From contig WJJS01000015.1 of NCBI GenBank assembly GCA_014729505.1, positions 35,300 through 99,299 on the forward strand: DNA of 64,000 bases, in the 5' to 3' direction. Origin of the DNA: Candidatus Woesearchaeota archaeon. Its GTDB lineage: Archaea; Nanobdellota; Nanobdellia; Woesearchaeales; ARS49. Position 1 is the first letter of the stretch. Every line of letters starts with the position of its first letter. This document shows, one piece after another, positions 40,445 to 64,000 of the stretch. Under the pieces are notes generated by a model, which saw only the letters and a program-made list of their open reading frames with translations, was not told the origin of the DNA and searched no databases. Made by a program: the position numbers and the translations under genes.

Positions 40445-40556
40445 CGCCCCCGGCAGGATTTGAACCTGCGACCTGACGGTCTCTTTCAAAGCTTGCTTAG
40501 AGCAACAAGCGAAGCAAGATAACAGCCGTCCGCTCTAACCACTGAGCCACAGGGGC
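40445..40556 (-). tRNA. tRNA-Asn (GUU) with a 39-nt intron at the 37/38 position
   Basis: Manual fold: acceptor GCCCCTG/CGGGGGC, D arm GCTCAGTGGTTAGAGC, anticodon stem GACGG/CCGTC, loop CTGTTA|intron|A, T arm GCAGG-TTCAAAT-CCTGC; intron lies at plus 40481-40519. Confidence 0.8.
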
Positions 40557-44766: not shown

Positions 44767-44858
44767 GCCCGAGTAGTATAGTCTGGATAGTACGCACGGT
44801 TGCGGAAGAATACTTTTGCAAAATCCGTGTAACCGGGGTTCGAATCCTCGCTCGGGCA
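44767..44858 (+). tRNA. tRNA-Arg (GCG) with an 18-nt intron at 37/38
   Basis: Acceptor GCCCGAG/CTCGGGC, anticodon stem CACGG/CCGTG, loop TTGCGG|intron 44806-44823|T, T arm CGGGG-TTCGAAT-CCTCG, discriminator A. Confidence 0.7.
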
Positions 44859-52986: not shown

Positions 52987-54057
52987 ATGCACATGGCCGC
53001 ACTAGACTGCTTACAGAAATCCATTGAACACGTCGAACTCCTCCTACACTGGTTTGCCACATCACATTTTAGCGGCCAATTACGAGATCTTCTCGAAGAT
53101 TATCAGCGCGATGCGCAAGCAATAGAAGAAAGCGGTGCTTCAGAAGACGAACAATTTGATGATCTAGTAGCACTTGAAGAAAGTGTGCAAATCCATTCCA
53201 AAGAATTTGATTATTCATCAGGACTCCATCGATTACAAGTAGTAGCCGGACAAGTCCTCACCTGTATACAAGATATTTTGACCTCGCTAACAGGTTCTAC
53301 TGTTGCACATCCTACTATTCCAGGACTTCACGAACCACGAACAACAGTTGAAGACAGAATAACACTTGTTAAAAAAGAATGTAGCGAAGAATTTCAAAAA
53401 GCAGAGAACGCCGCGCGCACGATCGCGTCATACACTCCTTCGATCATTACTGCACTAGACAATCAACGATTCAAAGAAGCACAAGATCTCACCCTTGCGT
53501 GCCGCCAGATAGTACAAGACATCATCACCTCTCTTACCCGCGTGCTAGCACTATTACGCTCCCTTCTCAGCGGAGTAACGTACAAATACTACAAACATAG
53601 CTATTACTGGACGTATGATAGTGCGTATGCGACAGAATTGCAAGAAGGCCATGTGCTTAGGGGAGTACTCAATGTTGTACACGCCGTCCAAACAAAAATA
53701 GCAGAAATGCTTGATGAGGGAAAACCGCTACCTGATAACGCGTTTCAACTCTCCATGCGAACAGGAACAATAGAACAAACAAGTGGCGGACTTATGATGG
53801 GAAGACAGGATGCAGGCAAACATACACGAATACTGTTTTACTGTTACAGAAAACCACACACATCCGTAATCGACATTCGATTCTGTGAATACATCGGACA
53901 CGATACTCATAACGAAGGAGTAGCAAAAAATAAAGGACGTTATGCAGATCTCATCAATGGCCTGCTCGCCAGAAACACATATGGAGCGATTCATCACGAA
54001 GACAAGGATTTTAACGAGACCTGGATATATTGTGCAACGGTGGCAGATATCCTCTGA
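52987..54057 (+). CDS. hypothetical protein
   Basis: 356 aa, helical, no recognisable domain. Confidence 0.35.
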   Translation: MHMAALDCLQKSIEHVELLLHWFATSHFSGQLRDLLEDYQRDAQAIEESGASEDEQFDDLVALEESVQIHSKEFDYSSGLHRLQVVAGQVLTCIQDILTSLTGSTVAHPTIPGLHEPRTTVEDRITLVKKECSEEFQKAENAARTIASYTPSIITALDNQRFKEAQDLTLACRQIVQDIITSLTRVLALLRSLLSGVTYKYYKHSYYWTYDSAYATELQEGHVLRGVLNVVHAVQTKIAEMLDEGKPLPDNAFQLSMRTGTIEQTSGGLMMGRQDAGKHTRILFYCYRKPHTSVIDIRFCEYIGHDTHNEGVAKNKGRYADLINGLLARNTYGAIHHEDKDFNETWIYCATVADIL

Positions 54058-54547
54058 AAAAATACTTCGTACGCTCACAAATATCTGCAACATTCCAAGA
54101 AGTCACATCAAGTGCACAAGGCTCCAACAACCATGAAGAACTTTCATAAGGATCCTGACTGTTATCCTCTAGCGAATACAGCATCAAACGATCCTTCTTT
54201 CGCGCAATAGTAAGAGCTGCCTGAGGTCCCTGAACACTAATGGAATCCTCAACATAACGGTTCTCAGTCATGTGCACAAGATCTAGAAAAAGACGCTCTG
54301 GGACTCTGCCCTCGCGAAGCATAGTAACTACGTCGTCACATAAAAACTCATGTCTTGCATACGCGTTAGGAACGCCATGAACAGTACTGGAGTACGTCAG
54401 AGAAGGAGCGCAATCATGTATTTTATTCAATGATAAGGAAAAAGGATCCGCAGAGCCGTGAGTATCTGTACGAGATTCGCCGCACGACGCCCTCAAACGC
54501 GCATACACTGCGCTCACCACCTCATCTTGAAAAAAGATGTCCCCCAT
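54011..54547 (-). CDS. hypothetical protein
   Basis: 178 aa; its 3' end overlaps the previous gene by 47 bp. Confidence 0.3.
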   Translation of the reverse strand: MGDIFFQDEVVSAVYARLRASCGESRTDTHGSADPFSLSLNKIHDCAPSLTYSSTVHGVPNAYARHEFLCDDVVTMLREGRVPERLFLDLVHMTENRYVEDSISVQGPQAALTIARKKDRLMLYSLEDNSQDPYESSSWLLEPCALDVTSWNVADICERTKYFFRGYLPPLHNISRSR

Positions 54548-54611
54548 ACCGTTTTTGTGCTCTCATCCCTTTTAAGACTTACGGACACCTGCGACAATGA
54601 CAAGAAGAATA

Positions 54612-54619
54612 TTTATAAA
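54612..54619 (+). promoter_or_regulatory. TATA box upstream of the tRNA-Gln leader / pseudo-tRNA
   Basis: TTTATAAA about 29 bp upstream of 54645; no comparable TATA directly upstream of the intact tRNA-Gln. Confidence 0.45.
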
Positions 54620-54644
54620 GGACGCAAGGGTTTTTTCGCACAAC

Positions 54645-54739
54645 AGTCCCGTAGTGTAGTGGTCCTGCGCAAATCTGCGATTTGCTGGTCTCGCCTCGCA
54701 AGCTCGGCAAGAAATCATCAGGCACTTCATTACAACAAC
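54645..54739 (+). pseudogene. truncated duplicate of the tRNA-Gln 5' part with a 47-nt insertion carrying a GCAAATC-TGC-GATTTGC hairpin (likely leader of the tRNA-Gln transcript)
   Basis: 54645-54664 is identical to tRNA-Gln positions 1-20 (plus 4 upstream nt); after the insert, AATCATCAGGCACTT matches tRNA-Gln 21-35 with 1 mismatch; no T arm or 3' acceptor. Confidence 0.6.
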
Positions 54740-54812
54740 AGTCCCGTAGTGTAGTGGTCAATCATCTGGCACTTTGGATGCTAGGACGGCGGTTCGAATC
54801 CGCCCGGGACTA
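54740..54812 (+). tRNA. tRNA-Gln (UUG)
   Basis: Acceptor AGTCCCG/CGGGACT, anticodon stem TGGCA/TGCTA, loop CTTTGGA, T arm GGCGG-TTCGAAT-CCGCC, discriminator A. Confidence 0.75.
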
Positions 54813-54827
54813 TCTCGAGGTGACATC

Positions 54828-55535
54828 ATGACTGACATATATTCTCTAAAAGTTCAGGCACAACACTGCGACGCAACGATTCTACTCAACGGATTTCCAG
54901 TTGTTCGAGGAAACGTAGGTGCAGGAGGATACCCGATAAACCCTTATCTGGCCGGAGACAACACGCTAGAAGTCACACTACAAGCAAGAGGGCAAGGAGC
55001 ACATTTTTCTGGAGGAATCAACATCGCACAAAAAGGAGGTGTCGTGAGTACAGACCGTCAACAAAGCGATTTGATGAACTTTTCATTCTCCAAAGAACTT
55101 GAAAAGGGACCATTGACAAAGACGTTTACTTTCACTAGCACAGGAGCAAACTTTAGCAACCGACTCGTTAGCGCCCCGATACTTGAAGACAAGAACGCGT
55201 TACTTGATTATGCAATGAACGTCCAAAAAGCAATACTCGACAAAGACAAAGAAGCACTGCAAAGACACATGAAAACAAAAATGCTAGACTATGCAAAAGC
55301 GTTTGGAGTGCCTGACGAACACATGCTACAAGAACTCGACAACTTTATTCACATGATGTTTCAAGAAAAGCCAATCCTCTTTACAAGAGAACAAGTGAAG
55401 GCGACGCCGTGGTGTGACAAACGCATCTGGGAACTCAAAGTCACACCTGACAACGCACTTTTGCGCACAAAAGAAGGATGGACCATGCCTGTCTTTGTAG
55501 GTCTTGTTGACGGAAAGATTACCATCGTACGTTAG
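54828..55535 (+). CDS. hypothetical protein
   Basis: 235 aa from the MTDIYS start; the ORF-track start at 54774 would overlap the tRNA. Confidence 0.4.
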   Translation: MTDIYSLKVQAQHCDATILLNGFPVVRGNVGAGGYPINPYLAGDNTLEVTLQARGQGAHFSGGINIAQKGGVVSTDRQQSDLMNFSFSKELEKGPLTKTFTFTSTGANFSNRLVSAPILEDKNALLDYAMNVQKAILDKDKEALQRHMKTKMLDYAKAFGVPDEHMLQELDNFIHMMFQEKPILFTREQVKATPWCDKRIWELKVTPDNALLRTKEGWTMPVFVGLVDGKITIVR

Positions 55536-55602
55536 GAAAATTCAGGCAGTATGTTGATCAATAAAAGAGTTTGCGCACCAAAGATGTTACACACTTCGCG
55601 CA

Positions 55603-56262
55603 TTACACTTTTTTTTGCAGTGCAAGAATAGCTTCCATCGTTTTGACCATATCCTCCTGTTGCACATAAATCAAAAATTCGGGAGGAACAATAATCATAT
55701 CTTCAATATTAATCTGCTGAATCGCAATTTCGCTTGCAATCTTTGCAAGAATGCCCTTTTGCTTGACTATCCGTTCATCAAAGACCACATTAATCTCTGC
55801 GAGATGTTCATTTCTTTTTTCAATATGTTTAGCAGGAATTACCTTCAACACTTCTTTCAGGTGGCTGTCTTCAACAATGATTTTAATCCAGCGCGACGCT
55901 TTACTTACGCGCACAAAATCCTTATCAGCACTCATATCAAGGACGCGAGCAACATATTTCTCCGCGCGACGATTAAGAGTTAGTGAAGTAACATTATTCT
56001 TGGACAGAATCTTTGCCTGATCAAACATACGATGAAATTTTTGTTCCATCGTAGAGGGTTTGCGTTCCTTGACATACCGGCGAATCGCAGAAATAATCGA
56101 ATCAATACTTCCCCTGACCTTCTTTTTTGTCATCAAGTAACGCGCAAGAGCGCGAATATTGATAATGTCTCGTGCAAGATCAGTCTTTATCGTCGCGTCT
56201 GCATCAATATGATTCCACACCGTTTTAGTAATGCTATTATTGCCCATGACTTGCGTACACAA
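55603..56262 (-). CDS. hypothetical protein (possible C-terminal ACT-like fold)
   Basis: 219 aa; no confident assignment. Confidence 0.35.
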   Translation of the reverse strand: MCTQVMGNNSITKTVWNHIDADATIKTDLARDIINIRALARYLMTKKKVRGSIDSIISAIRRYVKERKPSTMEQKFHRMFDQAKILSKNNVTSLTLNRRAEKYVARVLDMSADKDFVRVSKASRWIKIIVEDSHLKEVLKVIPAKHIEKRNEHLAEINVVFDERIVKQKGILAKIASEIAIQQINIEDMIIVPPEFLIYVQQEDMVKTMEAILALQKKV

Positions 56263-56450
56263 CGGTCAAAATGACATATTTGTGTAATGTTTCTCTCTAA
56301 ATGAATAATATGTGCCACAAACTTTATAAGTGTATGGGTTATCCTAGGCGATAATGGCGAATATGCTGAATACCAAGATTTACGTCTTTTGGTAGTCAGC
56401 GTGCTCTTTCTCCCGCCGCACGCAAATAAGGGGGAGAGAGCAGTAGGTGA

Positions 56451-56990
56451 GTGACAATGGAATATGACGCGGTTGAAATGGAAAACATGATGAAAGAAGG
56501 AATGCGCGAAGTCTACGTGGGTCGCGACGGCACCATGAGCAAAATTGCAGATACTTCCTATACACCACTGAACCGATCCTACTGGGGTCCTCGAAGAGAT
56601 ACCACACTACTCTGTTCAGTAGCAAAAGATACTAATGAACACCACATCACGCTACGATTCTTTGGCGCAGGACGCAATCCTGACAGAACCAAGGAACTCA
56701 CACAACTTGTGCGAACAGAAATGGGAAGCATACTGCCATGCCGCTCGAGAGGATTAGTCACTGCGTATGACGATAACGGTGGTTATGTATGCAATGATGA
56801 AAGAGGAAGGCCCGATGCGGTACAAGTCCGTGCAATAGTACACAACAATAACTCAAACACGCTTGAACTCTCCGTTAAAGGAGTGTATGGAGCACAGGAA
56901 CTAGAAGGTCCAGTACGAAGAATCATGCAAGGCATGCTCGCCATGCGAGAAGGACCAGAAAAAGAACTACCCCGAGGAGGATACTTCTAA
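56451..56990 (+). CDS. hypothetical protein
   Basis: 179 aa; TAATG overlap with the next ORF. Confidence 0.35.
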   Translation: MTMEYDAVEMENMMKEGMREVYVGRDGTMSKIADTSYTPLNRSYWGPRRDTTLLCSVAKDTNEHHITLRFFGAGRNPDRTKELTQLVRTEMGSILPCRSRGLVTAYDDNGGYVCNDERGRPDAVQVRAIVHNNNSNTLELSVKGVYGAQELEGPVRRIMQGMLAMREGPEKELPRGGYF

Positions 56991-58084
56991 TGCACACAAC
57001 ACCACTATCTGTCAAATCAGAATACGGAAGTGCAGAATGGTTGCGAGAAGAGACAGAAAAAGTACGATCGCGACTGGGATTACCACCACAAGATACACAT
57101 GCACTGCTAGAAGACGAACAGCTCAAAGAAGTCCTGCTACGCCAGCACCAACATCGAAGTCGCGTAGAACAAGAAGAACGACAACTCATGCATTATCGTG
57201 CAGAAGATGTCAATCACTGCGCTCGACAAGTCTGGGGCCGACGAGAACTACAACGTCTGGGGGTAATTAACGGAGCAGCAGACAGACTCTTAGCCAACCA
57301 AGAACTCCTGCACGCACTCACGCATCAAGATGCACACAAGCGCTACGCACCAACAGCCAGAGAGCGAGGAGGATTTGTGTTTGGACTTGGATACGTCAGA
57401 CGATTCATCGATGACGAACTACGATCCTACAGAGCAGAACAACAAACGCCCCAAGTAGCAAACGGCATCTGTGACCTCGATCACCTGTTATGCGTGTCAG
57501 GAATGATGCTTGCAGGAATGAACCCTGATGCGGTCCTCGAAGGTCAACGCTGCGGTTCACCAGCAATGGACCGTCGGCGTTTTGGCCTTGAACGTTCAGC
57601 AGACGGTTATCATTTACAATCCACAGCAACAAAACGACAGTATCATCTACGACGAGAAAAAAAGAAAATGGTGTTTACCCATCAATCAGTGCATCCCGTC
57701 GTGTATGAAAAAACAGTCAGTGAATTTCGCGATGGTCCACGATTACGACCATTAACGCTCGTACCATCAGGAGCCAGTCAGCACCAAGTGGCAACATTCA
57801 TGCACAAAGCAGGACAGCATCTGACAAGAGAGCCGCGAGAATCAGTAGACAATGTGCGTGTCAACGGATCAACAATGGAATATGACCAGCATTTCTGGAT
57901 CGACAGAGATGAACTACACGATCTGGACTCCTCGGGCTGTGCAACACAAGCAGAAGTATTTGACGATCCGGAAAACAGATTCTACACGGCACACGTGACG
58001 CTGCGAGCAAAAGAATGCATGGAAAACCATACGCCAACACTGACATACCTGCTCACCGTGACCGTCGGAAAACGAACACTATAA
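56990..58084 (+). CDS. hypothetical protein (Arg/His/Gln-rich)
   Basis: 364 aa, no recognisable domain; composition atypical for the window. Confidence 0.4.
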   Translation: MHTTPLSVKSEYGSAEWLREETEKVRSRLGLPPQDTHALLEDEQLKEVLLRQHQHRSRVEQEERQLMHYRAEDVNHCARQVWGRRELQRLGVINGAADRLLANQELLHALTHQDAHKRYAPTARERGGFVFGLGYVRRFIDDELRSYRAEQQTPQVANGICDLDHLLCVSGMMLAGMNPDAVLEGQRCGSPAMDRRRFGLERSADGYHLQSTATKRQYHLRREKKKMVFTHQSVHPVVYEKTVSEFRDGPRLRPLTLVPSGASQHQVATFMHKAGQHLTREPRESVDNVRVNGSTMEYDQHFWIDRDELHDLDSSGCATQAEVFDDPENRFYTAHVTLRAKECMENHTPTLTYLLTVTVGKRTL

Positions 58085-58091
58085 ATTTTTT

Positions 58092-58898
58092 TTATTTCAA
58101 TTCACACACTTTACATTGTTCAGCAATCTTCTTTGCCTTTTGAAACGCGATACCCAGCAACGTTGCCAGTTGTTCGGGTGATTTTCCATGAATATCGCTA
58201 AGCAACAACACCTCTTTTTTTATACATCGTTCCAATAAATCAGGCGTTATACCGCGCAACATCGTAATAGGATACGCTTTATACTTCTCAATGTTTGACT
58301 GCAAACTATCATCCTTTGGATAACTCCAACCAAGCAAACGCAGACCAACACTCTTTGCATACCTTGTAGAATGGCCAGAGAATTTAGTGTTTGTTGCAAG
58401 CATAGGTTTGGTAAACTCCTTTTTTACATCAAGAAAACGAGCATACACATACAACGGAGTCTGAATATGAATAGTCAAATGCTCCTTACTCTTATGCTTA
58501 CACTCGACCATCAACACCTGAGAACCCTTCTTTGCCTTCACATCGATCTCATGGGTTACTGCCTTACCATGCGAAGTAACATTTCGACGACACTCAAAAC
58601 CCTGAAAGACTAAAATGCGCTCAATAAGAGCTTCAAAAGGAAAACCACTCCTGCCAAAACGATACAAGGCACCCTTCAAATCATACTTTGGAGCAACAAT
58701 GGGCTGCAATTTTCTAAACTCGCGAAACGCAAGACCAAAGAGTTCCTTTGTCGTCATACCATTATAGATCTTTTTGCGAACAAGAGCCTTAATCTGTTCA
58801 ATAGTATGCTTATCAGCACCTGCCCTCTTCAACGACTTCGCTAACTTTTTCTCGTCATATTTCTCCTTTGAACCATCGCCCTTAATGATGTATGTCAT
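58092..58898 (-). CDS. ATP-cone domain fused to an Mrr-like PD-(D/E)xK restriction-endonuclease domain
   Basis: N-terminal ATP-cone (MTYIIKGDGSKEKYDEKKLAKSL...); nuclease core HEIDVKAKKGSQVLMVECKHK (D...E-x-K). Confidence 0.65.
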   Translation of the reverse strand: MTYIIKGDGSKEKYDEKKLAKSLKRAGADKHTIEQIKALVRKKIYNGMTTKELFGLAFREFRKLQPIVAPKYDLKGALYRFGRSGFPFEALIERILVFQGFECRRNVTSHGKAVTHEIDVKAKKGSQVLMVECKHKSKEHLTIHIQTPLYVYARFLDVKKEFTKPMLATNTKFSGHSTRYAKSVGLRLLGWSYPKDDSLQSNIEKYKAYPITMLRGITPDLLERCIKKEVLLLSDIHGKSPEQLATLLGIAFQKAKKIAEQCKVCELK

Positions 58899-59803
58899 TG
58901 TTTGCCTCCGTAATAAAATTCAGACCAAATAAGATAATGATCGCTAACCTCGTCAGTAACAGAAGAATCCACGCCGCTACGAGCAAAACGCGGAACTGTT
59001 CGCTCACTAATGATCATCTGATCATAGGTACAGTCCGTTTTTGAGACGGTAGTATCAGCACGATCAGGAATCAACCAATACTGCGCACGCAACGCAGGGG
59101 CCTCATCCTCGTCAAGATACGAACAATCAGCATTGAGATCGCCAGCAATAATCACATGCTCATGAGTCTGCAATTCATTATTGAAAAAATACGCAAGACC
59201 GGCCAGTTCATTGACATTATCTGAAGGACTTGTATGAGCAGTCAACATGCGAAAAGTAAAATCCTCGACTTGAAACGTTGCAGCAAAAGGCTGGCGCTGC
59301 ATACGCCCAGTATCTTGAGGTGACGTATCACAAGTTTGTCCCAGCTCTTTATCATCATCAAGAAGTCCTGCAGAACCAACAAGAGATACCATGTCACGAT
59401 CATAGATGATCGCATAACGCTCATCCTTTACCTGAGGACTCATGAGAATAGAATAATTCCTGTTGCCAAGATGCGTTTGCAAGGCTTTTGTGACGAGTTC
59501 ACACTTAGGACCGGGACAGGCGTCCTGATTACGAGAGCACCCTTCATCAATCAATTCATCAACATTACTAATCTCTTGTAAAACGACAATGTCATACTGA
59601 CCGATACGCTTGGCAATATCGCTCATTACCATATCATTGCCTGCCTTTTTTTGCCCGAAATTCTCAATATTCCACGACGCGATAGAGATTGTAGGCCTCG
59701 AATCTTGCATACCGGTAACCCATCCAGTGATCTGCGGTTTAAAAGTTACAAAGGCAGTGCCAAGTACAAGCAACAATAATACAATACTACGAAGTTTCAC
59801 CAT
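58895..59803 (-). CDS. secreted endonuclease/exonuclease/phosphatase (EEP, DNase I-like) family nuclease
   Basis: Signal/anchor MVKLRSIVLLLLVLGTAFV; EEP motifs SWNIENFG, VVLQEI, GDLNAD, SDHYLIWSEF; ATGA overlap with the downstream ATP-cone/Mrr gene. Confidence 0.75.
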   Translation of the reverse strand: MVKLRSIVLLLLVLGTAFVTFKPQITGWVTGMQDSRPTISIASWNIENFGQKKAGNDMVMSDIAKRIGQYDIVVLQEISNVDELIDEGCSRNQDACPGPKCELVTKALQTHLGNRNYSILMSPQVKDERYAIIYDRDMVSLVGSAGLLDDDKELGQTCDTSPQDTGRMQRQPFAATFQVEDFTFRMLTAHTSPSDNVNELAGLAYFFNNELQTHEHVIIAGDLNADCSYLDEDEAPALRAQYWLIPDRADTTVSKTDCTYDQMIISERTVPRFARSGVDSSVTDEVSDHYLIWSEFYYGGKQ

Positions 59804-59865
59804 TTTTTACTGTCAAAAGCAAGAGTACCATCACATTTAAAAATATTGGTAACGCCAAAGACTAT

Positions 59866-60381
59866 ATGGCACACGTCATCCTCGATTTAGAATCACTTAA
59901 AGCACTAGCGACAAAAAGCCGCCTAGCTATACTCAAACAATTACAACAACGGCGACATACCGCTTCAGAACTCGCAAAAGAAATGGGACTGCGCGTACCC
60001 ACTGTTAGAGAACACCTTACAAGTCTGGCCCGAGCACAACTTATACAGCGACACGATGAAGGACATAAATGGAAATATTATTCGCTCACGACAAAAGGAC
60101 GAGCCATCGTAGAACCACAAGAACGACGATTCAGTATCGCGCTAGCAACATTTATCATCGGCGCACTGGGATTCGTGTTCTCCATTAGCGCAGCAATAAC
60201 AAACAGAATCGCAGAAGACGGCGTGCAAAGTCCGGAACTGATGGATGCAGGTGTACGCGCACTGCAAGCAACACCGGTGCTCAGTCACAACGCACCAAGC
60301 TATACCTTCATCTTACTTAGCGCGATACTCTTTTGTGGAGTAATCATTATATCACTTCTAGGACTACGCCGACGTTCATAA
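59866..60381 (+). CDS. ArsR-family HTH regulator with C-terminal TM segments
   Basis: Winged HTH (SRLAILKQLQQRRHTASELAKEMGLRVPTVREHLTSL) followed by two hydrophobic helices. Confidence 0.65.
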   Translation: MAHVILDLESLKALATKSRLAILKQLQQRRHTASELAKEMGLRVPTVREHLTSLARAQLIQRHDEGHKWKYYSLTTKGRAIVEPQERRFSIALATFIIGALGFVFSISAAITNRIAEDGVQSPELMDAGVRALQATPVLSHNAPSYTFILLSAILFCGVIIISLLGLRRRS

Positions 60382-60412
60382 GTCTTTTATAGTGAAAAAG
60401 AAATAAGAAGGT

Positions 60413-61339
60413 ATGGCACGAACTGTTACCATTGTCATAAGCACGTCTTTACTCTTGCTTCTAGCAAGCCAGGTAACGCTCTTTTACCTGTTCTATGAAT
60501 TTGACAAGGACACTACTGCGAGATTTTCAACAATGCTTGCCAATGATCAACTCCTAGAACAAGGAATAGAAGATCTCAACACTCATATCGCAAGTACCAC
60601 ACAACAATTAGAAACAGCAATACTGAACACGCGCCAGGACCTCGGTGAGCAACTAATAAGCGTACAGCAAGAACTTGAAACAAGTACCGCCGCGTTTGCA
60701 CAAGATATTGCCGCTCTTGAACAAAGCCAGGCACAAACAAAAGCAAGCCTACAGGATTCAATACGAAACCTGCAATTGTCCAACCAGGATTTCAGCGGCA
60801 CCATACAAGACGTCCTGCCAAGCGTGGTCAGCGTGCTGACAGACGAAAGTCAGGGCAGCGGCGTTATTGTAGACAGAGAAGGACTAGTACTGACGAATTA
60901 TCATGTCATCGAAGACGCTACTATGATACGCGTGGTAACCGTTGAAGGGGATGTGTTAGGAGTAGACGTGCTAGGCTTTGCAGACAAACGAGATCTTGCA
61001 GTACTACACATACGAGGAGACCGAAGATGGGATGCACTCGATTTTGCAGACGACACGTTTGTAGGACAAAACGTTATTGCCATAGGCAATCCAGGAGGAC
61101 TGGGATTTAGCGTAACGGAAGGTATAATAAGCAGTACTAACAGAATCTTTGACGGATTGCACTTTGTGCAGATCTCAAATCCTATCAATCCGGGAAACAG
61201 CGGAGGACCACTCGTCAACATCGAAGGAGACATCGTAGGCATCAATACCCTCAAAATAGAAGGATTTGAAGGAGTTGGTTTTGCCATTCCAGCAACAGAT
61301 GCAGAAAATATCCTTGCACAAGCAAAAGAGTTGATATGA
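60413..61339 (+). CDS. membrane-anchored trypsin-like serine protease (HtrA/S1C-like, no PDZ)
   Basis: Catalytic triad contexts TNYHVI, DLAVLHI, GNSGGPL; N-terminal TM plus coiled coil. Confidence 0.75.
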   Translation: MARTVTIVISTSLLLLLASQVTLFYLFYEFDKDTTARFSTMLANDQLLEQGIEDLNTHIASTTQQLETAILNTRQDLGEQLISVQQELETSTAAFAQDIAALEQSQAQTKASLQDSIRNLQLSNQDFSGTIQDVLPSVVSVLTDESQGSGVIVDREGLVLTNYHVIEDATMIRVVTVEGDVLGVDVLGFADKRDLAVLHIRGDRRWDALDFADDTFVGQNVIAIGNPGGLGFSVTEGIISSTNRIFDGLHFVQISNPINPGNSGGPLVNIEGDIVGINTLKIEGFEGVGFAIPATDAENILAQAKELI

Positions 61340-61460: not shown

Positions 61461-61706
61461 ATGTTCAAAAGAGGGGATCCATCAACAGTCTTTCTCTTAC
61501 TCGCAGTAGGATTACTGCTTCTCGGCGGAGTATACTTATCAATTTTGTCAAGCAGTGGGAATGACATCACGGGAGCTGCAGGACAAACAACAGAAAGCTG
61601 TTCCACGTGCATGGTATGCACAGCACAACCAGGAATCTGCATTTCATTATTCGTACTCGTAACCTGCATTGCAGGCATAGTCGTAATAGAATTTACACGA
61701 TCATAG
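61461..61706 (+). CDS. small membrane protein
   Basis: 81 aa, 2 TM helices. Confidence 0.3.
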   Translation: MFKRGDPSTVFLLLAVGLLLLGGVYLSILSSSGNDITGAAGQTTESCSTCMVCTAQPGICISLFVLVTCIAGIVVIEFTRS

Positions 61707-61747
61707 GACGCAAGCTATATATACTACTCTCTCTTTATCGTAGCGAT

Positions 61748-64000
61748 ATGGTGATAAAAAAAGGGGCGACTATAGTTCTCTTCCTTTTATTTTGTAGTCT
61801 GGCAATGACTGCAGGCGCAATAGAAGTTGCCGATGAAGCGGCATGCGCAGGCACACCAGACCCCTCACAATATACGTATCCAGACAATTCAGGAGCGTGT
61901 TACCAAGCAGTACTTGCAAAAGCAAGCGATGCAGTCAAATGCTATTGCGCTGCAACAGGAAAATGCAGCGTGCCACGCTGTTCTTGTGCAACAAAACGAT
62001 CAACAGACGGGCATTTAAACATTGAATATGCCGAAAGTGATTTAGACGTTATAAAAGAATGCACTGGCAACCCTGCAGCAACAGGACTGTCAAGCCTCTT
62101 TGGAGCAGGCGACACGTTTATCGCTGATGACAGCACTGCAGGAGTACTCATCACTGATCCAGCACTCTGCGGCAACGGTGTCATAGATCCAGGAGAATCA
62201 TGCGATCCTAACAAAGCACCAACAGGATGCAGTGAACTACGCATCTGTGGCACACCAGCAGACCCGCGACCATGCAGGTGCACCTGTGATTATGAACGCA
62301 ACGCTGCAGGACAAGTCGTCAAAAAAAGCACAGGCGCCATAGGGGATCCCTGCAAAGGACGAGCAGCAGCAAACAAAGAATGGACATTCGACGAAGCATC
62401 ATGCACGTGCAAAGAAGTCTGTCAGGATAATCCACCAGTATCATTTACTCAAGCCAGTTGTCGCGCACAACATACGAGCAAAACAAAATGGAACGAAGAT
62501 ACCTGTGCATGCCTCTTCTGCGGCGACGGCACATACACTACAGATCCAGACGTGAGCTGTGACACCGTAGCAGGCACGGACCCGGTTGGCGCATTTGCCT
62601 GTTCGTACAAAGAAGAATGTAACGCACTGACATGCGGATGCGATTTCTGCACTGACGGCGTCAAAGCCTCATTACTCGCCGATTGTCAAATAGAAGCCTT
62701 CATTGAAGATATAGATCTCATGATGGATCCAGGAAACTGGCTATATGATTACCGCATACCAGGAAGAAATCCTGCACTACATCATAAACGAGTCAATTTC
62801 GCATCCTTGAAGATTGCAAATGATTGTAGCAAATGCACCTGGTCATACATCATCACCAATCCACCGCGCCCACCACCAGGATGGATGCCGCCAGGAGGAT
62901 GGCCCATTCCTTTACCACCACCATGGCTTGGACCCGCACCACTCAATATTACATCAACAAACGTGACCCCTGTCAATGCAACACCGCCCAACATGACAGG
63001 AAATATCAGACCAGTAAACGTGACACCACCAAACGGTACAGGGGGAGTCATCTTTACTGACACGGACGGCGATACCATTTACGATTTTGCAGACAATTGC
63101 GTTCTCATACCAAACGCGCAACAAGAAGACTGGGATCTCGACGGTATTGGAGATGTGTGCGACAATTGTATATATTTTTTGAACCCAACACAAGCAGATA
63201 CAGACACTGATACGTACGGCGATGCATGCGACCTCTGCCCGACAGAAGATGATCGCATCGATACAAACGGCAATGGTGTTCCAGACTGTCTAGAAGGGCC
63301 ATCACCGCCGCCAACACCATGGTGTACTGACGCAGACAATGACGGACTCTACGTCTATACCGCAACAGGCAACGCGACTATGCCGCCAGGAGCAAGCTTC
63401 AGTTGCGCAGTACAAGGACATTACGACTGTGATGATACAGACCCATTACAAACAAGCGAGTTTTTACCAGAAGCATGCGACGGTTACGACAATAATTGCA
63501 ACGGACTCGTCGATGACGGACTAGGCAATCTCACGTGCGGACAAGGCATTTTTGAAAACACCGTACCGGCATGCGTGAATGGACAAGCACAACTCTGCAC
63601 ACCAAAAGATGCATGCCCCAATGACCCGCAACGCGATGCAGATCAAGACGGCATCTGTGGCGACGTCGATAATTGCCCGCTCATAGGAAATCCCAGTCAA
63701 GCAGATGACGATAATGACGGCATAGGAAATGCATGCGATAACAATACCATCGTCAATACACCTACCTGCGGCAGTGTCACCGTTACCAGTCCATCAGGAT
63801 CCATAGGAATCAATTGTCCAACAGGATCTGGAGGGTCCCGACGGGGAGGATCAGTAACAGTAAGCAATATCACTGTTGGTTATCCAGAACTTAGCGTCGA
63901 GATCAGCTGTTTAAAAACGATCATCAGCACACCATATATCTGTGTTGAAGAAGGACTGAACAGTATCACATATACGCAAATCCTGCCAGGAGACGAAGAG
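61748..64000 (+). CDS. large secreted cysteine-rich surface protein with myxococcal-type Cys-rich repeats and thrombospondin type-3-like Ca-binding repeats; 3' end outside window (not in ORF track)
   Basis: Manually translated frame 2 is open from the ATG at 61748 to the window end (>750 codons): signal peptide MVIKKGATIVLFLLFCSLAMTAGA; CGNGVIDPGESCDPN repeat; TSP3-like DTDGDTIYDFADNC..DLDGIGDVCDNC, DTDTDTYGDACDLC, DADQDGICGDVDNCP, DDDNDGIGNACDN; the minus-strand ORFs listed inside it are antisense artefacts. Confidence 0.7.
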   Translation, partial: MVIKKGATIVLFLLFCSLAMTAGAIEVADEAACAGTPDPSQYTYPDNSGACYQAVLAKASDAVKCYCAATGKCSVPRCSCATKRSTDGHLNIEYAESDLDVIKECTGNPAATGLSSLFGAGDTFIADDSTAGVLITDPALCGNGVIDPGESCDPNKAPTGCSELRICGTPADPRPCRCTCDYERNAAGQVVKKSTGAIGDPCKGRAAANKEWTFDEASCTCKEVCQDNPPVSFTQASCRAQHTSKTKWNEDTCACLFCGDGTYTTDPDVSCDTVAGTDPVGAFACSYKEECNALTCGCDFCTDGVKASLLADCQIEAFIEDIDLMMDPGNWLYDYRIPGRNPALHHKRVNFASLKIANDCSKCTWSYIITNPPRPPPGWMPPGGWPIPLPPPWLGPAPLNITSTNVTPVNATPPNMTGNIRPVNVTPPNGTGGVIFTDTDGDTIYDFADNCVLIPNAQQEDWDLDGIGDVCDNCIYFLNPTQADTDTDTYGDACDLCPTEDDRIDTNGNGVPDCLEGPSPPPTPWCTDADNDGLYVYTATGNATMPPGASFSCAVQGHYDCDDTDPLQTSEFLPEACDGYDNNCNGLVDDGLGNLTCGQGIFENTVPACVNGQAQLCTPKDACPNDPQRDADQDGICGDVDNCPLIGNPSQADDDNDGIGNACDNNTIVNTPTCGSVTVTSPSGSIGINCPTGSGGSRRGGSVTVSNITVGYPELSVEISCLKTIISTPYICVEEGLNSITYTQILPGDEE

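Follow-up and report, generated by a model that had tools for sequence, protein, structure and literature searches.

A putative two-gene operon of hypothetical proteins beside an AF1548-type nuclease gene in a Candidatus Woesearchaeota genome

Taxonomically restricted hypothetical families have been surveyed in the DPANN archaea, and hypothetical proteins predominate in the genomes of these organisms (PMC9258230). Against this background we consider two adjacent genes, ORF1 and ORF2, located in a stretch of 64,000 nucleotides from a Candidatus Woesearchaeota archaeon (hereafter, the window), which has a GC content of approximately 44% and looks like typical archaeal DNA. Several described systems invite comparison. 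One is presented by the type II toxin-antitoxin modules, in which, as in the pair considered here, a small upstream gene is coupled to a larger downstream gene in the same orientation and with a short overlap, and which also resemble the pair in rapid divergence, patchy distribution, position in a variable region and the presence of nuclease genes nearby. Another is the AF1548-type nuclease family (PDB 1Y88), for which literature searches revealed no described partner proteins. ORF1 and ORF2 possess no similarity to this nuclease; the gene next to them encodes a clear member of the family. A third is the catalytic domain of BirA, the biotin-protein ligase, suggested by a structural model of ORF1.

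The gene pair and its expression signals

ORF1 (56457-56990, + strand, 177 aa) and ORF2 (56990-58084, + strand, 364 aa) correspond to loci GF342_03990 and GF342_03995, and their translations are identical to the hypothetical proteins MBD3319041.1 and MBD3319042.1 from a metagenome-assembled genome (MAG) of Candidatus Woesearchaeota archaeon. The MAG contig carrying the pair is 100,137 bp long. The original prediction, made from the DNA sequence alone, listed two ORFs of 179 and 364 aa, and both are indeed present on the + strand, but a length of 177 aa fits ORF1 better, based on the spacing of the Shine-Dalgarno site and on the NCBI annotation. This site, AGGTGA (56445-56450, + strand), is positioned 6 nt 5' of the ATG at 56457, while it directly abuts the alternative start, GTG 56451, and the ATG, as annotated by NCBI, seems the more likely start codon. 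A strong Shine-Dalgarno site for ORF2, GAGGAGGA (56974-56981, + strand), is embedded in the 3' end of ORF1, 8 nt 5' of the ORF2 ATG, and the stop codon of ORF1 overlaps the start codon of ORF2 in the sequence TAATG (56988-56992, + strand), read directly off the DNA, in agreement with the translational coupling proposed originally.

Further signals are found on both sides of the pair. A candidate archaeal TATA box, TTTATAA (56323-56329, + strand), which may act as a promoter element, judging from its sequence, falls within the 194-nt intergenic region that separates ORF1 from a divergently oriented gene for an ACT-domain protein, and this box could drive the transcription of ORF1 and ORF2, of the ACT-domain gene on the opposite strand, or of both. 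Just 5' of the ribosome-binding site of ORF1, folding predicts two neighbouring hairpins in the 5' leader (56363-56441, + strand), the leader segment 56340-56470 having a minimum free energy of -42.7 kcal/mol (z -2.9 versus shuffled sequences); a search of Rfam with the structured leader produced 0 matches. Immediately 3' of the ORF2 stop codon, a tract of eight T residues (58086-58093, + strand) reaches into the stop codon of the nuclease gene that converges on ORF2, and, in keeping with the way transcription ends in archaea, it is a likely archaeal oligo-T terminator. The proposed operon would thus read, in order, candidate TATA box, structured leader, ORF1 with its Shine-Dalgarno site, ORF2 with its own site and the TAATG overlap, and oligo-T terminator, and the shared orientation and the overlap of the two genes suggest that they would be co-transcribed.

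As to the possibility that these ORFs are spurious and that the region is non-coding or pseudogenic, we consider it practically negligible. The one point in its favor is the absence of database matches. Against it stand the long frames, confined to a single strand, the opposite strand containing no comparable ORF, the very low chance of an open frame of 364 codons arising in DNA of 44% GC, the native codon use, the Shine-Dalgarno sites, and the conservation at the protein level in a second genome, in which gene order is kept and the length of ORF2 is nearly the same (364 versus 365 aa). As an independent contig carries homologues of both ORFs in unchanged order, sequence comparison identifies them as genuine protein-coding genes.

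Neither sequence contains a signal peptide or a membrane segment, and the GRAVY values of the two proteins are -0.67 and -0.75, respectively. Both would be soluble cytoplasmic proteins, representing two families so far found in two genomes only. ORF1 and its homologue share the block Y-V-C-N-D-E-x-G-x-P-x-x-V-Q-V-R-A (residues 110-126). In ORF2, the N-terminal approximately 125 residues are predicted to be helical and are little conserved, while the remainder is conserved and includes the motifs P-Q-V-A-x-G-x-x-D-L-x-x-L-L-C-x-x-G-M (residues 154-172) and F-W-I-D-R-D-E (residues 302-308), in what is predicted to be a beta-rich C-terminal half.

Single-sequence AF2 models were of low confidence, with a pLDDT of 54.5 and a pTM of 0.52 for ORF1 and a pLDDT of 42 for ORF2. 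They suggest an alpha+beta protein for ORF1, and a helical N-terminal half followed by a beta-rich C-terminal half for ORF2, and models of this quality are too poor for assigning a function. The ORF1 model did lend itself to one specific reading, that ORF1 is a divergent enzyme or ligand-binding protein resembling biotin/lipoate-protein ligases (class II aminoacyl-tRNA synthetase-like fold), with ORF2 as its partner. We find this highly improbable. In this low-confidence model, the biotin/lipoate-protein ligase fold scores only slightly better than type III secretion chaperones and START/Bet v 1 folds, no match to the Pfam family BPL_LplA_LipB (PF03099) is detected at E <= 1, and searches of PDB with single sequences and profiles reveal no such relative. 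ORF1 thus differs from the BirA catalytic domain in carrying no sequence signal of it.

Relatives of the pair and the adjacent nuclease

No match to ORF1 or ORF2 was found at E <= 1 in Pfam, NCBIfam, PHROGs or PADLOC, consistent with the original description of two uncharacterised proteins with no recognisable motif, and searches of PDB sequences, with single-sequence queries and with two-sequence profiles, returned noise only. The homology check proposed earlier for membership in well-known housekeeping families accordingly gave no placement by Pfam, NCBIfam or PDB searches. In a word-indexed search of 5.8 billion proteins, ORF1 and ORF2 were each a singleton, matching only themselves. With ORF2 as the query, HMMER was run exhaustively over 1.84 billion cluster representatives and recovered one other protein, P0123 (365 aa; E 3e-8), 26-30% identical to ORF2 across the C-terminal two thirds. 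Six-frame HMM searches of approximately 1 Mb of Woesearchaeota loci added no further family members, and no paralogues of either gene are present within the window. A weak match to ORF1 on two of these loci (L009 and L010) was dismissed, as it represents a pilin-like membrane protein. The idea that ORF1 is a copy of the C-terminal domain of ORF2, prompted by a shared 15-nt repeat encoding MEYD, was ruled out by BLASTP and hhalign.

P0123 is encoded on a metagenome contig of 2,021 bp (L091; ENA ERZ925376, run ERR688342), whose genes follow one another as in the window: a homologue of ORF1 (positions 3-416, cut by the contig end; 33% identity, E 1e-12), the homologue of ORF2, and, tail to tail with the latter, a homologue of the nuclease (1546-2019, - strand; 62% identity). 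No Pfam match was found for either the ORF1-like or the ORF2-like protein of this contig. As judged from these identities (33% and 26-30% versus 62%), the pair diverges at approximately twice the rate of the adjacent nuclease, and ORF1 and ORF2 form a gene pair that is conserved and evolves fast. The two instances do not share the TAATG coupling; on L091, the genes are separated by a 32-nt spacer containing a T-run and an AAGGAG site.

The nuclease gene of the window (58092-58898, - strand) converges on ORF2. Its product combines an N-terminal ATP-cone, a PD-(D/E)xK domain of the Mrr type and an AF1548-like C-terminal domain, an assignment resting on Pfam (ATP-cone, Mrr_cat and AF1548-like_C), on the match of residues 81-263 to PDB 1Y88 (E 2.7e-31) and on the homologue on L091, while PADLOC returns only weak Mrr-type or PDDEXK matches. 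The start of the nuclease gene overlaps the stop of a gene for an EEP-family nuclease/phosphatase in the sequence ATGA, and these two genes appear to form one operon. The EEP protein has a hydrophobic segment at its N-terminus.

This proximity raises the possibility of a three-gene system, in which the pair and the AF1548-type ATP-cone/Mrr nuclease would function together, as a sensor/regulator with its effector, or as an inhibitor with its nuclease. In the two instances known, ORF2 and the nuclease gene meet tail to tail, 7 nt apart in the window and overlapping by 4 nt on L091, and the nuclease holds its 62% identity as the pair diverges. However, convergent genes would not be co-transcribed, and the nuclease seemingly shares an operon with the EEP gene rather than with the pair. 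In addition, no relative of ORF1 or ORF2 was found near six remoter nuclease homologues (34-47% identity), from Nanoarchaeota, Hydrothermarchaeota, Nitrososphaeraceae and Flavobacteria, so there is no family-wide co-occurrence, and it follows that the AF1548-type nucleases do not generally need ORF1 or ORF2. The neighbours of these six are unrelated and partly of housekeeping appearance, such as MutS/MutL-like ORFs (recognised by eye from their N-termini). Likewise, a relative with the same flanks, described below, carries other genes upstream of the block formed by the nuclease, EEP, ArsR-type regulator and protease genes. On balance, a functional three-gene system seems unlikely to us.

Composition, genomic setting and origin

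The original prediction described both proteins as rich in Arg, His, Gln and Trp, setting them apart from the Lys/Glu/Ile-rich proteins of the window. The statement holds for Arg, which is high in both (10.2% in ORF1, z +2.2; 10.4% in ORF2, z +2.4), and the contrast holds for Ile, which is low in both (2.8% and 1.1%, respectively). His is raised in ORF2 only (5.8%, z +2.6, versus 1.7% in ORF1), Gln is mildly elevated in ORF2 (z +1.2) and low in ORF1, and Trp is enriched in neither (0.6%, z -0.5, and 0.8%, z -0.2). In a ranking of 58 genes by overall amino-acid distance, ORF1 comes 7th, and ORF2 falls outside the top 12. The ORF2 homologue P0123 is not biased in this way (Arg 6.6%, Lys 6.8%, Ile 4.4%), and the bias is thus no trait of the family. 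At the DNA level, GC3 is 0.41 in ORF1 (z +0.2) and 0.39 in ORF2 (z -0.2), against a window mean of 0.397, and synonymous codon fit (z +0.5 and +1.0, respectively) is typical of + strand genes. The GC content of codon positions 1+2 in ORF2, 0.539, is the maximum for the window, and the tetranucleotide distance of the pair region is at the 94th percentile, exceeded by several other parts of the window. With the silent-site measures being native, it is the amino acids that are odd, and the mutational signature of the DNA is not; the codon-usage and tetranucleotide comparison proposed earlier as a check speaks against a recent foreign origin. On L091, a contig of 53% GC, GC3 ranges from 0.61 to 0.73 in the three genes, so that each copy fits its own genome, and the recurrence of the pair with the nuclease on such a contig agrees with the pair having been resident for a long time, or at least having had long to ameliorate.

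The window encodes FtsZ, MgtC and diphthine synthase (DphB) immediately upstream of the region. Identity to the closest DphB proteins is only 61-66%, and among the loci fetched no FtsZ is closer than 82% identity (L095). The lineage is thus poorly sampled, and this by itself accounts for the orphan look of fast-evolving genes. The pair is located in a variable stretch, whose gene content changes from one relative to the next, with conserved blocks on either side, FtsZ-MgtC-DphB on the left and nuclease-EEP-ArsR-protease on the right. One relative (P0006; a 27.6-kb contig of JGI 3300072015) has both flanks in common with the window, its left flank encoding DNA ligase, nitroreductase, FtsZ, MgtC and DphB, and its right flank encoding the ATP-cone/Mrr nuclease, the EEP nuclease, an ArsR-type regulator and a trypsin-like protease. 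The gene content between these flanks differs from that of the window, consisting of three - strand genes (for proteins of 192, 84 and 188 aa) and a gene for an AI-2E transporter, followed by three + strand genes (for proteins of 103, 139 and 932 aa). In other relatives the left block is retained, and the genes beyond DphB are unrelated. The synteny comparison called for by the original prediction thus confirms a variable stretch, but it also reveals the recurrence of the pair with the nuclease on L091.

One proposal made from the sequence was that of a horizontally acquired island. In its explicit form, the pair would be the cargo of a genomic island recently inserted at the tRNA-Gln gene, and in its favor one may cite the shifted amino-acid content (Arg high, Ile and Lys low) together with the extreme GC1+2 of ORF2, a pseudo-copy of the 5' half of tRNA-Gln located 95 nt upstream of the tRNA, and the gene content between the flanks, unlike that of the nearest syntenic relative. 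The pseudo-copy, however, is the only repeat found and is on the side away from the pair, and the 3' half of tRNA-Gln occurs only once in the 64-kb window, leaving no att repeat. No integrase or recombinase domain was detected by Pfam in the ORFs from 52987 to 60381. The pair does not sit directly beside the tRNA, since a 235-aa ORF and the ACT-domain gene intervene. The latter (55603-56262, - strand) is conserved in Woesearchaeota and, in three relatives (L027, L039 and L067), directly adjoins DphB in tail-to-tail orientation, which removes it from the ORFs at 54828-56262 that had been counted as island cargo. The block at 52987-55535 (a 356-aa ORF, a 178-aa ORF, tRNA-Gln and the 235-aa ORF) has the look of an insertion between DphB and the ACT-domain gene. 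Adding to this the native GC3 and synonymous codons, the unremarkable tetranucleotide distance and the recurrence of the layout in a second genome, a recent transfer is largely refuted, and we regard the tRNA-Gln island as quite unlikely. What stands of the island proposal is the difference in gene content between relatives sharing the flanks; the place of the pair is a variable stretch or a breakpoint of synteny, and it lacks the marks of a mobile island.

Similar considerations apply to the possibility that the pair is a remnant of a DPANN virus or another mobile element. Virus-derived genes are typically orphans that diverge fast and sit in variable regions, as this pair does, and the viruses of DPANN are poorly sampled. 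However, no relative of ORF1 or ORF2 was detected in PHROGs or among 2.9 million viral contigs (IMG/VR), using single sequences or alignments, ORF2 has no tblastn match among GenBank phages or in plasmid records, and the ORF1 model has no fold match in BFVD. The neighbouring ORFs have no viral relatives either, and Pfam recognises no capsid, terminase, integrase or replication genes near the pair. We deem a viral remnant very unlikely.

Proposed role and comparison with known systems

Overall, the explanation that we favor, with slightly better than even confidence, is that ORF1 and ORF2 form a clade-restricted bicistronic operon for two soluble proteins, an old resident of the genome that has kept its adjacency to the nuclease gene, and for which an accessory role is proposed. 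The pair would be a long-standing resident of the lineage and not a recent import, and its two products may be made in a fixed proportion and act as a complex. Several observations weigh against this explanation. Only two instances are available, and the layout kept in both could reflect plain vertical inheritance with no functional link to the nuclease. The coupling is lost on L091, and no antitoxin DNA-binding, toxin or defence domain has been found. In the closest syntenic relative, the site is occupied by the genes for the 103-, 139- and 932-aa proteins. Finally, the structure models are of low confidence (pLDDT 42 and 54.5), which leaves the complex and the fold as conjectures.

As to the role of such an operon, the reading that we judge likeliest, and even so consider rather improbable, is that of an accessory module that the cell can do without and that evolves fast, serving in conflict or stress, be it in the manner of a toxin and its antidote or as a modulator of the nuclease. 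What suggests this role is that the genes are coupled, diverge rapidly and are rare, and that they occupy a variable neighbourhood containing nucleases. Going further, the pair may represent a previously unseen two-protein conflict system, acting as a toxin and its antidote, or as a sensor/regulator of the ATP-cone-gated PD-(D/E)xK nuclease, with folds and families new to the databases and evolving under antagonistic selection; this more specific proposal we hold to be unlikely. Regardless of which applies, ORF1, ORF2 and the gene for the AF1548-type ATP-cone nuclease make up a defined, testable three-gene neighbourhood. Should the pair prove to regulate or counteract the nuclease, this would provide the first functional handle on a widespread uncharacterised nuclease family, and would give a function to some of the many genes of DPANN that are still uncharacterised.

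Returning to the described systems, the resemblance to type II toxin-antitoxin modules has its limits. The proteins of the pair (177 and 364 aa) are larger than usual for such modules, and the coupling, as seen from the 32-nt spacer on L091, is not conserved in the second instance. Neither ORF matches an antitoxin DNA-binding domain (HTH, RHH, AbrB or Phd type) in Pfam or NCBIfam at E <= 1, or a known toxin superfamily (PIN, RelE/ParE, MazF, HEPN, Fic, GNAT, Zeta, HipA and others) in Pfam, NCBIfam, PADLOC or PDB, and no component of the defence-system models of PADLOC-DB v2 is matched by either. The orphan families of DPANN (PMC9258230) present a parallel of a different kind. The pair shares with them the lack of a functional prediction, the narrow lineage range and the fast divergence. 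However, these families are lineage-wide, while the pair is far rarer, with two instances among approximately 15 billion proteins, and they are represented by single genes, as opposed to the fixed two-gene arrangement described here. In conclusion, judging by their sequences, the products of ORF1 and ORF2 are new as protein families, while as a genomic feature, a clade-restricted, fast-evolving hypothetical operon is ordinary for DPANN.

The nuclease block downstream of the orphan pair

The ATP-cone/Mrr (AF1548-type) nuclease gene (58092-58898, minus strand), convergent with ORF2, belongs to a four-gene block (58092-61339) that also encodes an EEP nuclease, an ArsR-type regulator, and a trypsin-like protease. 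The EEP nuclease possesses a hydrophobic segment at its N-terminus and is likely exported, while the regulator carries membrane segments at its C-terminus. As the order and orientation of the four genes are maintained in the nearest syntenic relative, the JGI 3300072015 contig, the nuclease pair looks like long-standing lineage content rather than a mobile defence island. The ATP-cone/AF1548-type nuclease has homologues at 34-47% identity (loci L001-L006) that are patchily distributed, their hosts being Nanoarchaeota, Hydrothermarchaeota, Nitrososphaeraceae, and several Flavobacteriia, suggesting inter-domain transfer of this gene.

The tRNA-Gln region and the ORF1 leader

The DphB and ACT-domain genes are directly adjacent in three relatives (loci L027, L039, and L067); in the window, a block (52987-55535) stands between them, comprising a 356-aa ORF, a 178-aa ORF that overlaps its tail, tRNA-Gln (54740-54812), and a 235-aa ORF starting 16 nt past the tRNA. 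None of the proteins of this block has a family match or a viral match, and codon use in its ORFs is native. Upstream of tRNA-Gln is a pseudo-copy of its 5' half (both within 54640-54812), made up of 25 nt identical to the start of the tRNA, five leader bases included, an insertion of 48 nt, and then AATCATCAGGCACTT, the match ending at the anticodon loop. A second copy of the 3' half was not found within the window. The pseudo-copy may be an old recombination scar or a decayed duplicate.

At 56354-56441, the leader of ORF1 contains an upstream ORF of 13 codons, MANMLNTKIYVFW, which starts about 25 nt downstream of the candidate TATA box (TTTATAA, 56323-56329). Two stable hairpins (z -2.9) are predicted here, and the upstream ORF overlaps the first of them. 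No Rfam match was detected for this leader, and the ORF/hairpin could represent a leaderless leader peptide, a regulatory structure, or chance.

Features of the wider window

Synonymous codon fit sorts almost cleanly by strand across the whole window, with nearly all minus-strand genes below the mean and nearly all plus-strand genes above it; three plus-strand genes are exceptions. GC skew is persistently negative and AT skew persistently positive throughout, indicating a strong strand-specific mutational bias. Two further tRNA genes, of 112 nt (40445-40556, minus strand) and 92 nt (44767-44858, plus strand), were matched by Rfam and not called by ARAGORN; both are probably intron-bearing, tRNA introns being common in Archaea. 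Tetranucleotide deviation within the window peaks at 61565-64000, where a reading frame stays open for more than 800 codons and continues beyond the window edge. Its Cys-rich product, probably secreted, carries repeated DxDxDGxxDxCDNC motifs that resemble the calcium-binding thrombospondin type 3 repeats.
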